64,000 nucleotides of DNA, from assembly GCA_964016885.1 (NCBI GenBank), contig OZ024742.1, forward strand, positions 334,862,001 to 334,926,000, in the 5' to 3' direction. Of the stretch, positions 23,522-28,815 are shown in pieces; position 1 is the stretch's first letter; each line of letters begins with the position of its first letter. The notes beneath the pieces were generated by a model, which saw only the letters and a program-made list of their open reading frames with translations, made no database searches and was not told the DNA's origin. The position numbers and the translations under genes were made by a program. Source of the DNA: Eledone cirrhosa (lineage: Eukaryota).

Positions 23522-24323
23522 GGGATAACAAGTTATCGTTATAGGTAATCCAGTTAGAGGTTGTGAATACTCCGTATTGTGGATAGTTTTAGCGTACGGC
23601 GTTGTTTGACTCAACAAGAGTTTTTTTAGGTAGCGAGTATATGAGTTCTCGGGAGTTCCTATATAAGTTAATCTTGGAGTAATAATAGTGAAAGAGTGAA
23701 GAATAACATGGTCAACAGTACAAAAAGGGTTTTATTTACAGTATTAACAATTGTTTAATTGGTTAAGTTGTCTTAAAATTGCTAATCACTTGAAGTTGTG
23801 TCACTCAATTTTAAATACGATGTATGCTTAACCAAAACATCAGAAAAATTTTAAAAATTATACACAGCGTTTACAAATTCAAATTACATTATTAATAAAG
23901 AAGGAAAAAGAATCACTACTTTTATTTTTTCTCCCTATTTTTCTTTTCTTTATCTTTTTCTTTATTCTTTTTTCTTTCTTTCTTTCTTTCTTTCTTTCTT
24001 TCTTTCTTTCTTTCTTTCTTTCTTTCTTTCTTTCATTCTTTCTTTCTTTCTTTCTCTTTTTTTCTCTCTATTATTTTCTTTTTTCTTCTTTTTCTTTTTC
24101 CTTTATTAATGATGTCGTAATTTGAATTTGTAAACGTTGTGTATAATTTTATTTTTTCAGTTTTTCTGATGATTTGGTTAAGCATACATTGTATTTAAAA
24201 TTGAGTGACACAACTTCAAGTGATTAGCAATTTTAAGACAACTTAACCAATGAAACAATTGTTAATACTGTAAATAAAACCCTTTTTGTACTGTTGACCA
24301 TGTTATTCTCCACTCTTTCACTA
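23522..24323 (-). mobile_element. Hammerhead-bearing element with inverted arm (23686-23905 vs 24100-24323)
   Basis: Inverted repeat of about 220 bp around a (CTTT)n spacer; diverged homolog at 47724-48020. Confidence 0.75.
24158..24270 (+). ncRNA. Type I hammerhead ribozyme motif
   Basis: CTGATGA-t-ttggttaag...cttaaccaa-t-GAAAC-aatt-GTT; 9-bp stem II, palindromic stem III ACAATTGT, weak stem I. Confidence 0.65.
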
Positions 24324-24331
24324 TATATATA

Positions 24332-24857
24332 TTGAGTTTATGTTGGTTGTATACCAACACCTAAGTATGCAGGCTGGAGCACTCGACGAAGTGCGCAGGT
24401 TGGTTTGGTTACTCCGGAGTAGTGTAAAATGAAGTTAAATAAAAGTCAAATGATTAAAATTTAGCTTCGTTTATTACTGCTATATATATTTCAGTGACAG
24501 CCATCTTTGGCTGTGACCTCTTCAGGCAATTTGAATTAGTATGGTATAGACAAGTACATATGTTGTTTAGGTGTATAATATTGTCAATACTCTGATATGC
24601 CCAGTTCCTTGTTTGTTGTTATTTCACTGAGGAACTGGAGTCATATCACTCCAGTTCCTCAGTGAAATAACAACAAACAAGGAACTGGGCATATCAGAGT
24701 ATTGACAATATTATACACCTAAACAACATATGTACTTGTCTATACCATACTAATTGAAATTGCCTGAAGAGGTCACAGCCAAAGATGGCTGTCACTGAAA
24801 TATATATAGCAGTAATAAACGAAGCTAAATTTTAATCATTTGACTTTTATTTAACTT
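24332..24857. mobile_element. Hammerhead-bearing element forming a fold-back with 210-bp arms (24432-24857)
   Basis: Near-perfect inverted repeat with a 6-nt loop at 24642-24647; flanked by TA runs. Confidence 0.85.
24760..24812 (+). ncRNA. Type I hammerhead ribozyme (mirror copy on minus strand at 24477-24529)
   Basis: ttgc-CTGAAGA-ggtcacagcc(aaagat)ggctgtcact-GAAA-tatata-TA-gcag; palindromic stem III, AUA site. Confidence 0.78.
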
Positions 24858-24969
24858 TTATATATATATATATATATATATATATATATATATATATATA
24901 TATATATATATATGTGTGTGTGTGTGTGTGTGTGTGTGTGTGTGTGTGTGTGTGTGTGTGTGTGTGTGT

Positions 24970-25475
24970 AGTAATAATAATAAATTTGAAGACTAAAATC
25001 CAAAGAGGGCTCGATAAGGATAAATATATATCAAATATATAAGAACCGTAGAACAAATATTTATTAAAATAAGAGATTAAAGTTTAAGCAAAGAATCGCT
25101 GCTTTCACCCTTAACGGGATCTTCTGAAACTAACAAAGTCAATCTGTGAACGCAGAAGTAAATATTTCAAATTTATTATTATTACTGTTTGGCTCCCTCG
25201 GTTGAGCACTCTATTGACTTATATTCATCATGCAGAAACAACATCTGAATATTTCTACAAAAAACATATCGGTACCAAGCAGGAAAACATATATAGTTGC
25301 CAGGGAACGTTTCCACGAACCAAAGTATCGTCTTCCTGTCTTCCTCCGGTTGCAACGTTTTTTGAAATATTTACTTCTGCGTTCACAGATTGACTTTGTT
25401 AGTTTCAGACGATCCCGTTAAGGGTAAAAGCACCGATTCTTTGCTTAAACTTTAATCTGTTATTTTAATAAATAT
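24970..25475. mobile_element. Dispersed repeat with inverted arms of about 113 bp (25058-25172 vs 25361-25475)
   Basis: Inverted repeat visible; rearranged homolog at 46138-46282. Confidence 0.75.
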
Positions 25476-25489
25476 ATATATATATATAT

Positions 25490-26490: not shown

Positions 26491-26554
26491 ATATATATAT
26501 ATATATATATATATATATATATATATATATATATATATATATATATATATATAT

Positions 26555-27130
26555 ATGTAAGTATGTATGTATACGTACATACATATATGTATACAGACGT
26601 ACAGTAGCATGCATATATATATATATATATATATATATATACATACAGGTACACATACATATATGTACGTATCAGTTTAGCGGACGCTTATTATAGCGCC
26701 CGCTTTGTTCGTTTGTAAACAAACTGAACAGCCTGAATTTATGCCGTACGGTGTTAAGGCAACCACGTCACCTTTTTGTTCAACACTGACACAGGAACGA
26801 TGTACTAGTTTCAAACTTGTTAGCTATCATCAGCACCGTATACCCTTCTGCCAGATGGTTGAACGTTCGAAAGTATATACTTTCCTTATGAAAATTAACG
26901 GCTGAGCAGCCTAATTTGCATATCGAGTGAGTTCGGCCAGGCGTACCGAGAACGACAAGTTGTAATAAAATGAAAACGAAATTTCATTTCTCACTCTTAG
27001 TACGGCACTTACTTAAATGTAAGTATGTATGTATACGTACATACATATATGTAAGTGCCGTACATACATATAAGTAAGTGCCGTACTAAGAGTGAGAAAT
27101 GAAATTTCGTTTTCATTTTATTACAACTTA
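26555..27130 (-). mobile_element. Retrozyme-like element: about 462-bp unit with terminal redundancy and inverted end (26958-27015 vs 27071-27129)
   Basis: atgtaagtatgtatgtatacgtacatacatatatgta at 26555 and 27017; inverted arm visible. Confidence 0.7.
26797..26839 (-). ncRNA. Compact type I hammerhead ribozyme
   Basis: Minus strand acggtg-CTGATGA-tagct(aaca)agttt-GAAAC-ta-GTA-catcgt; 6-bp stem I, palindromic ACTAGT stem III, weak stem II. Confidence 0.8.
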
Positions 27131-27141
27131 TATATATATAT

Positions 27142-28558
27142 TTGAATCATAGACAACCTATGTATTTCTGGGGGTACCTAGTATCCCTGGACATATTAAC
27201 TTCAATCTCTTTCTCCGTCCGTTGAGAACAATTCTGTTGCTCTATTTAGCTGCTATTTTTTTAGTAGTAATTGTAGACAGCAAGTCTTTGATTTTCCCGC
27301 TTTTACTTCGGTCCAGTTTACATACGGGTCACTTTTACGACCTTTCAGACCTTTATTTGCTGGCAGGAGGTTATATATTTTGTCGTTCCTGGGACGTTTA
27401 GCCCTAGGAAGAGAAAATGCTTCCTGATGAGCTTTGGTTTTCCATCATAAATCCATCGGATTTATGAGGTTTTACAAAGCGAAACTGATCAGTAAGGGCC
27501 ACTAGGAGAGGTAAATATTTATATTATATTTTTTAATGTATTTTTAGAAAATTGATTGAATTTTACTTGTTCTGCTTATCTTAATATTAAAGTTCTGGTG
27601 TATCAAATTAATACCATTGAACAACCTTGAATCATAGACAACCTATGTATTTCTGGGGGTACCTAGTATCCCTGGACATATTAACTTCAATCTCTTTCTC
27701 CGTCCGTTGAGAACAATTCTGTTGCTCTATTTAGCTGCTATTTTTTTAGTAGTAATTGTAGACAGCAAGTCTTTGATTTTCCCGCTTTTACTTCGGTCCA
27801 GTTTACATACGGGTCACTTTTACGACCTTTCAGACCTTTATTTGCTGGCAGGAGGTTATATATTTTGTCGTTCCTGGGACGTTTAGCCCTAGGAAGAGAA
27901 AATGCTTCCTGATGAGCTTTGGTTTTCCATCATAAATCCATCGGATTTATGAGGTTTTACAAAGCGAAACTGATCAGTAAGGGCCACTAGGAGAGGTAAA
28001 TATTTATATTATATTTTTTAATGTATTTTTAGAAAATTGATTGAATTTTACTTGTTCTGCTTATCTTAATATTAAAGTTCTGGTGTATCAAATTAATACC
28101 ATTGAACAACCTTGAATCATAGACAACCTATGTATTTCTGGGGGTACCTAGTATCCCTGGACATATTAACTTCAATCTCTTTCTCCGTCCGTTGAGAACA
28201 ATTCTGTTGCTCTATTTAGCTGCTATTTTTTTAGTAGTAATTGTAGACAGCAAGTCTTTGATTTTCCCGCTTTTACTTCGGTCCAGTTTACATACGGGTC
28301 ACTTTTACGACCTTTCAGACCTTTATTTGCTGGCAGGAGGTTATATATTTTGTCGTTCCTGGGACGTTTAGCCCTAGGAAGAGAAAATGCTTCTCTGATG
28401 AGCTTTGGTTTTCCATCATAAATCCATCGGATTTATGAGGTTTTACAAAGCGAAACTGATCAGTAAGGGCCACTAGGAGAGGTAAATATTTATATTATAT
28501 TTTTTAATGTATTTTTAGAAAATTGATTGAATTTTACTTGTTCTGCTTATCTTAATAT
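27142..28558 (+). mobile_element. Retrozyme-like tandem array: about 2.9 near-identical copies of a 485-bp unit
   Basis: ttgaatcatagacaacc at 27142, 27627 and 28112; TA tracts at both ends. Confidence 0.92.
27419..27499 (+). ncRNA. Type I hammerhead ribozyme (repeated at 27904-27984 and 28389-28470)
   Basis: CTGATGA-gctttg...caaagc-GAAAC-tgatca-GTA-agggc; internal 10-bp hairpin tcataaatcc/ggatttatga in loop II. Confidence 0.88.
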
Positions 28559-28599
28559 ATATATATATATATATATATATATATATATATATATATATA

Positions 28600-28815
28600 T
28601 CAGATATGGTGTGATAAAACCCAGCTAGACCATAACCCACCAGAGTCCTCGATTATTGGGGTAGTAGGGTCAGTAATATGAAAAAATTCAGCACCCCGAC
28701 GGCTGAGCCCCAGCCGTTTCGAAAGCTAGATCCGAACTCATTTACATGCTCACCAGTTCGGATCTAGCTGTCGAAACGGCTGGGGCTCACCCGTCATAGT
28801 CCTGGATCTTTTCAT
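28600..28815. mobile_element. GAAAC-hairpin-GTC family repeat with fold-back end
   Basis: gacggctgagccccagccgtttcgaaagctagatccgaact ... agttcggatctagctgtcgaaacggctggggctcacccgtc. Confidence 0.75.

Follow-up and report, generated by a model that had tools for sequence, protein, structure and literature searches.

A stack of hammerhead-carrying repeat units in a compound TA-rich microsatellite of Eledone cirrhosa

Results

A 64-kb stretch of the Eledone cirrhosa genome (NCBI GenBank assembly GCA_964016885.1, contig OZ024742.1, positions 334,862,001 to 334,926,000 of the forward strand; hereafter "the window", numbered from its first letter) contains, at positions 23522–28816, seven adjoining repeat units that carry type I hammerhead ribozymes or their remnants. 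They form a real, biologically made stack of non-autonomous, hammerhead-carrying retroelements from about six families, and we consider it probable that a protein of Penelope-like elements (PLEs) deposited them in seven independent insertions at (TA)n. The units (U1 to U7, from left to right) were delimited by self-BLAST and repeat finding, none is nested in another, and all comparisons with other copies of their families were made within the window. Seven distinct units parted by TA or TA/TG runs are thereby confirmed, much as a first-pass annotation of the same DNA had described them (mostly parted by short (TA)n or (TG)n runs). The starts it gave at 23522, 24332, 24970, 25490 (more precisely ~25488), 27142 and 28600 also stand, whereas U5 begins at ~26672 and not at 26555, since ~120 bp of simple-repeat flank (26555–26671) had wrongly been counted into it. 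In-silico removal of U1–U7 leaves a 363-bp compound TA/TG/TATG microsatellite, akin to other compound tracts in this AT-rich and microsatellite-dense window (159 tandem-repeat rows). The target is thus better described as a compound tract of ~360 bp than as the pure ancestral TA microsatellite that had been proposed.

Six of the seven units are inverted repeats, with arms of ~230 (U1), 213 (U2), 115 (U3), 315 (U4), 60–69 (U5), and ~62 bp (U7), and the 3′ ends of the units face outward, into TA. U1 (23522–24324) is a head-to-head pair in which a minus copy (23912–23522), with a dead ribozyme and a longer 3′ tail, meets a plus copy (23913–24324) with a hammerhead at 24166–24263 (+); its arms lie at 23685–23912 and 24086–24324, and a relative is found at 47723–48048. 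After a short TA spacer (24325–24331), U2 (24332–24857) consists of a 213-bp near-perfect palindrome (24432–24857) and a 100-nt tail on the minus copy, with one hammerhead in each arm (24764–24808, +; 24481–24525, −). A (TA)27(TG)28 spacer (24858–24969) leads to U3 (24970–25475), a permuted 376-nt monomer with a minus copy at 25171–24970, a plus copy at 25166–25475, a hammerhead-like motif at 25086–25126 (−), and a relative at 46133–46284. Beyond a TA spacer (25476–25487), U4 (25488–26492) comprises 1.43 tandem copies of a 483-nt monomer (25803–26492, +) and a 315-nt inverted copy (25802–25488), with hammerheads at 26231–26304 (+) and 25568–25641 (−). A low-complexity TA/TATG/TA remnant of the target (26493–26671) precedes U5 (26672–27129), in which a minus copy (~27015–26672) is joined to a short inverted arm (27061–27129) and the hammerhead (26803–26833, −) lies outside the arms. 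U6 (27142–28558, +), between a (TA)6 spacer (27130–27141) and a (TA)~21 spacer (28559–28599), is the sole unit without an inversion; in it a 485-nt monomer is simply repeated in tandem, 2.9 times, with hammerhead copies at 27424–27494, 27909–27979, and 28395–28465 (all +). Finally, U7 (28600–28816) has inverted arms at 28677–28740 and 28753–28816 and a tail at 28600–28676, and its relatives lie at 4172–4310, 4826–4881, 46301–46404, and 48398–48590.

In three of the units the monomer is circularly permuted or arranged in tandem: U3 (376 nt, with a variant ribozyme core), U4 (483 nt), and U6 (485 nt). In U3, the end of the minus-copy tail recurs at the start of the plus copy and continues into sequence upstream of the ribozyme, so that the 376-nt circle closes. 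Monomers are non-coding, with a GC content of 0.28–0.47 and a longest stop-free frame of 106 aa, and a Pfam search with 40 of the 45 in-region frames gave no match, the remaining five being repeats of U6 frames. As in metazoan non-LTR (long terminal repeat) retrozymes, for which lengths of 150–450 bp (Cervera and de la Pena 2020, PMC7229834) and 51–972 bp (Li et al. 2026, bioRxiv 10.64898/2026.07.22.740005) are given, the tandem monomers of the stack are non-coding, below 50% GC, and carry one type I hammerhead each. Judged by their sequence, U3, U4, and U6 therefore match the non-LTR retrozyme form, while U1, U2, U5, and U7 are compatible with retrozyme fragments as well as with PLE ends. Set against the criterion of Li et al. 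for an "active" retrozyme, at least two consecutive complete hammerheads in tandem, only U4 and U6 hold at least two ribozyme cores, and these are in tandem only in U6, where one of the three meets our descriptors; U4 has one complete tandem copy.

Although the units had been described as unrelated, U4 and U6 are distant relatives. Phased at the ribozyme, their monomers are collinear end to end with 55% identity, and the global alignment score of 244 exceeds all 300 shuffles (137 ± 15, maximum 188), as does the score with the ribozyme trimmed (166 vs 106 ± 13). This kinship, which reduces the count to about six families instead of seven, is visible only in the phased global alignment: local BLAST between unit monomers gave no match below E = 0.008.

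We evaluated the ribozymes with a strict type I descriptor (core CUGANGA, GAAA, NUH and helices I–III, with core strings as in the methods of PMC8557442) and a relaxed version tolerating one mismatch at the helix II base. Strict matches occur in three of the seven units (both strands of U2 and of U4, plus U6 copy 3) and nowhere else in the 64 kb, while the relaxed descriptor adds U5 in the region and two copies outside it, at 48046 and 61413. With the relaxed descriptor the region has six matches, in four of the seven units, whereas 500 dinucleotide shuffles averaged 0.004 and gave at most 1. U1, U3, U7, and U6 copies 1–2 fail this test. The plus arm of U1 keeps the whole core, helix II with a U.U at its base, as also described for axolotl HHR_Amex2, and a palindromic helix III, but its helix I is broken after 2 pairs; the minus arm has two core substitutions, and the relative at 48046 is an intact hammerhead. 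In U3, which fails both descriptors, helix II is 3 bp long and core residue U4 is changed to A in all three copies seen, including the one at 46207. U5 has an intact core and a weak helix II. U6 copies 1 and 2 lack the first helix I pair, being one base shorter just before the core (27423 and 27908 vs 28394). In U7 (both arms) and its relatives, what is left of the hammerhead is the 3′ half alone, with GAAA, a helix III of 6 bp, and the cleavage triplet, and all of these sequences end within ~25 nt upstream of GAAA. Accordingly, the earlier count of five complete hammerhead folds holds for units with an intact catalytic core and is one too high for complete folds, helix I of U1 being broken.

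Helix III is palindromic in all five intact-core units, a feature linked to dimeric folding (PMC4209133), and compensatory helix III changes separate the relatives U4 and U6 as well as the copies at 55680 and 4641. In the predicted minimum-energy fold of U6, copies 1 and 3 pair with each other through their helix III sequences. Several further candidates were set aside. No hammerhead reached the Rfam gathering threshold across the 64 kb, the weak HH9 match at 26785–26847 (E = 7) scoring 15.8 bits against a threshold of 52, and the 88 Rfam matches at E up to 10 in 23000–29500 are nearly all microRNA models on palindromes, below cut-offs. A core-like CTGAGGA in the middle of the U2 palindrome (24627, +; 24662, −) lacks both helix I and helix III and is no ribozyme, and U7 was rejected as a complete type I/II hammerhead because no CUGANGA is present at either expected place in its arms and six related stretches, aligned. 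A MAFFT alignment of 11 ribozymes was not used because the variable stems were misaligned. The U4-to-A core of the U3 family is kept in independent copies (25120–25126 and 46196–46202), and may mark an inactive passenger or a natural variant, and the one-base difference among U6 copies could be a sequencing error or real. Elsewhere, a hammerhead-like fold with a U4-to-C core lies at 20842–20880 (−), with no TA run beside it, and a minimal-hammerhead-like motif near 3966 (+), which fails the descriptors, is followed by AATAAA and a TA run (3960–4060, by eye), resembling a PLE 3′ end.

The ends of the units follow a common pattern. In all of them the ribozyme sense points outward, and the ends lie 29–224 nt past the predicted cleavage site, with the exception of the short inverted arm of U5, which stops upstream of its ribozyme. 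Considering ends as informative when a second copy shows how the element continues past them, five of eight in-region ends share 3–6 alternating T/A bases with the flanking TA run, as do all six ends of three similar elements elsewhere in the window. Overall, 11 of 14 ends display at least 3 nt of TA microhomology, against a null of 0.063 per site (P = 2e-11). When U4 and U6 are aligned, the inverted end of U4 and the end of U6 take up nearly matching positions. The ends of U2 and U5 match by 1 nt, and by eye both stop at motifs that look alike, hinting at a fixed start site; the U7 end matches by 3 nt with its flank out of phase.

Inversion junctions differ between units: a 6-nt overlap in U3, a blunt join in U4, a near-perfect palindrome in U2, and a 40-nt flank copy with template jumps in U5. 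In the 5′ inversions that L1 elements form by twin priming, two primed complementary DNAs (cDNAs) are joined at a short overlap, which the U3 junction resembles. Unlike L1 twin priming, the stack has no poly(A) tail, its two arms can be copied from one and the same part of the template, and insertion is into (TA)n. The U5 junction (27014–27053) is a 39/40 copy of the unit's own left flank at 26552–26591, with short template jumps, and resembles templated end-joining repair.

The units also differ in age. Substitutions between arms or copies number 10/228 in U1 (with 3 indels), 2/213 in U2, 4/115 in U3, 0/315 and 0/207 in U4, 2/69 in U5 (both at the flank-derived end), 0/446 plus one indel in U6, and 10/64 in U7, the oldest unit. 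As palindromes can homogenise, arm divergence is only a rough clock; read in this way, the sequences argue for separate events, with U4 and U6 appearing very recent. An order of old units outside and young ones inside is seen only partly, U7 and U1 being the oldest yet U2 (0.9%) lying outside U3 (3.5%). Relatives of U1, U3, and U7 recur elsewhere in the window, singly or in other combinations. Taken together, the range of divergence (0 to 10/64), the lack of nesting, this separate recurrence, and the end microhomology support the serial, independent insertion into a TA-rich target that had first been suggested.

All 18 insertions in a catalogue of the window lie within TA tracts, and seven of these are in one of 48 tracts, although the catalogue was hand-built, may favour TA-flanked pieces, and may be incomplete outside the region. 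In simulations, a maximum of at least seven insertions per tract was reached in 0 of 20000 runs with equal tracts, in 1.0% of length-weighted runs, and in 0.2% of split-and-grow runs. The idea that the tract is regenerated at each event may simply mean that insertion splits it, but splitting and growth alone rarely yield 7 of 18 (P ~0.002). The stack is likely a hotspot, albeit a modest one, as the window was chosen for the stack and the outside catalogue is possibly incomplete. Smaller stacks with short TA spacers, of three units at 4172–4881 and two at 46133–46404, reuse the U7, U3, and 592-nt families. As its families are also present at other places in the window, and smaller stacks with them, the stack represents the densest case of a general pattern.

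We also folded whole units as read-through RNA. The predicted structures are long hairpins (−389 kcal/mol for U2 and −657 kcal/mol for U4), consistent with the earlier expectation that read-through would form long double-stranded RNA (dsRNA). The accompanying suggestion that a transcript would meet ribozymes on both strands is largely unsupported. With the copies joined head to head, transcription from either side would produce the antisense arm before the sense arm, and for six of nine motifs (U1, both of U2, U3, and both of U4) the modelled helix I/II probability drops to 0.0, the bases of the core being paired with the far arm instead (0.76–1.0), so that these ribozymes are buried in hairpins. 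U5 and the two U6 copies tested would keep helix II (0.92–0.97). Equilibrium folding therefore mostly does not predict cleavage on both strands.

Several elements elsewhere in the window are of similar build. A larger one in TA at 53763–55834 has a 592/593-nt monomer in ~2.4 tandem copies, a 641-nt inversion, and three hammerheads with a variant U3-A8 core (55680, +; 54677, −; 54085, −), and a diverged relative of this 592-nt family at 4323–4798 carries a hammerhead (4641, −) with a compensatory change in its palindromic helix III. A further family at 61177–61872 shows a 520-nt period, a short inversion, a hammerhead at 61413 (−), and TA microhomology at both ends. At 49689–50666, a palindrome and ~540-nt tandem in TA has the same end pattern, is interrupted by a SINE-like (short interspersed nuclear element) repeat, and yields no hammerhead by the strict or relaxed descriptor. 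A TA-flanked element at 48621–49515 with 103-bp terminal inverted repeats (95% identity) is presumably, by its look, a Tc1/mariner derivative using the same TA target. Among other features, another SINE-like repeat, reminiscent of octopus genomes, is found near 23060–23230, a 200-N scaffold gap at 51038–51237, a near-intact long interspersed nuclear element (LINE) at 30977–35857 (−) with a 1010-aa ORF2 (second open reading frame, ORF) encoding an apurinic/apyrimidinic (AP) endonuclease and a reverse transcriptase (RT) plus a 395-aa upstream ORF, and a decayed second LINE copy at 36396–40380 (−). The window's only RT matches are in such AP-endonuclease LINE-type ORFs (Pfam RVT_1 and Exo_endo_phos at 30977–34006).

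Discussion

From the anatomy, motifs, junctions, and differing ages of the units we infer an enzyme, an RNA template, and an order of events, the most likely route being a series of PLE-driven insertions at (TA)n in which target priming starts from 3–6 nt of TA microhomology. A PLE protein, presumably supplied in trans as none is encoded in the stack, would cut inside (TA)n, and each DNA end would pair with a short internal TAT or ATAT of the RNA, usually 29–224 nt downstream of the ribozyme cleavage site. The paired end would then prime reverse transcription backwards through the cleavage site, so that only an uncleaved multimer or a circle could serve as its template. The head-to-head inversions may arise when two cDNAs, or a single folded-back one, are joined at their 5′ ends, and long reverse-transcription runs may give the more-than-unit tandems. 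With TA left on both sides, the tract would stay a target and fill over time.

This reading draws on two known systems. Head-to-head inversion, palindromic junctions, one-sided tails, and a (TA)n bias are described for PLEs (PMC8557442, PMC3846280), and internal initiation on uncleaved RNA has been shown for one of them (PMC11167929). Like endonuclease-positive (EN+) PLEs of the Neptune/Naiad type, the stack shows 5′ truncation, a head-to-head inverted copy, a one-end tail, a hammerhead near the 3′ end, a palindromic helix III, a long helix II, an internal reverse-transcription start, and AT-rich or (TA)n targets; the anatomy of a PLE insertion, i.e., a head-to-head inverted 5′ copy with a one-end tail, is found in six of the seven units, all except U6. 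Unlike these PLEs, it has tails of 75–160 nt instead of 30–40 and no ORF with RT and GIY-YIG domains, the hallmark of an autonomous EN+ PLE, in our Pfam scan. The stack also departs from metazoan non-LTR retrozymes in that its copies are for the most part incomplete and permuted, have an inverted partner, and lie in TA runs; the words "inverted" and "microsatellite" are absent from the main text of PMC7229834 and appear once each, in other senses, in Li et al. 2026. PLEs have been called "a strong candidate" for the mobiliser of retrozymes (PMC7229834), and recently active Penelope-like families are reported in the repeat annotation of Octopus vulgaris (PMC13282606). A literature search of partial coverage returned no study of cephalopod retrozymes or of stacked hammerhead elements in TA tracts, nor any that took as its subject a link, via junctions, between retrozyme-type circles and PLE-type integration.

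The units could instead be merely the 5′-truncated ends (pseudo-LTRs) of autonomous PLEs, turned into tandems by later unequal crossover and involving no independent retrozyme RNA. Circular permutation is not seen in U1, U2, U5, or U7, Li et al. 2026 propose that PLE termini are amplified locally in tandem, and truncated PLEs do yield opposite-strand hammerhead pairs, 100–700 bp apart (PMC4209133). In U3 and U4, however, sequence downstream of the ribozyme runs into sequence upstream of it inside a single inverted insertion, meaning that the permutation was already in the template, and the 376–485 nt monomers hold no coding remnant detectable by Pfam; we thus judge this explanation unlikely, if worth keeping in mind. 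It is far less plausible that the perfect inversions of U2 and U4 and the triplication of U6 are sequencing or assembly artefacts. The U4 arms are 100% identical, the U6 copies differ by one indel, and the assembly is microsatellite-rich with a 200-N gap, but the arms of U1, U3, and U7 have diverged by 3.5–16%, the same anatomy recurs at 48398, 49689, 53763, and 61177, and the ends fall on TA microhomology, with U4 being asymmetric and no simple fold-back.

Two other views treat the block as a whole. It might be a retained host locus, a source of small RNA or dsRNA that traps retrozyme families and silences them in trans much as a piRNA (Piwi-interacting RNA) cluster would, and the presence of six families in 5.3 kb, the long perfect hairpins, and the clustering above nulls would fit. 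We nevertheless find this improbable, as smaller stacks occupy other TA tracts (three units at one, two at another) and old units decay, ribozyme core positions included. That the block moved as one composite element seems hardly credible: unit ages range from 0 to ~16%, the families recur apart and in other orders, and no support for joint movement was found within the window.

Several observations weigh against insertion of retrozyme RNA by a PLE protein. When motifs are folded in isolation, a high-probability hammerhead is obtained only for U4 (26231–26304; helix I 0.91, helix II 0.99), helix I reaching 0.00–0.19 in the six other motifs (U1, U2, U3, U5, and the two U6 copies tested). No PLE RT or GIY-YIG domain was found among the 80 frames scanned by Pfam (40 of 45 in the region, 40 of 70 outside). 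Three of the eight informative in-region ends (U2, U5, U7) are without microhomology, and target-site duplications are unreadable inside TA repeats. The one PLE assayed in vitro, anole Poseidon, starts at a non-homologous site (PMC11167929), unlike the stack, whose ends with 3–6 nt of target microhomology suggest that priming here may differ. Clustering also exceeds the simple nulls (P 0.002–0.01) in a window selected for this very feature, an extra pull that serial insertion leaves unexplained.

Most likely the stack is selfish debris without host function; rather than a functional locus, it is probably the extreme of a habit that extends across the genome. The kind of element is already known; beside the density of the stack, what stands out is how clearly its junctions show the mode of insertion. 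Arguments about the mobiliser and the integration route of animal retrozymes still draw on co-occurrence and phylogeny (PMC7229834; Li et al. 2026), and insertions that combine retrozyme monomers with PLE-type inversions, internal starts, and TA microhomology make both matters testable from junctions alone. More tentatively, and with some doubt on our part, diverse circular retrozyme RNAs of 376–590 nt may still be active and be integrated by PLEs through twin priming at (TA)n via 3–6 nt of pairing, with occupied tracts attracting more insertions and building stacks rich in hairpins, which would shut down their own ribozymes and perhaps supply small-RNA silencing. If so, permuted, more-than-unit, and inverted insertions would record, directly in the genome, reverse transcription that ran around a circle, and such footprints would reveal the machinery that mobilises animal retrozymes.

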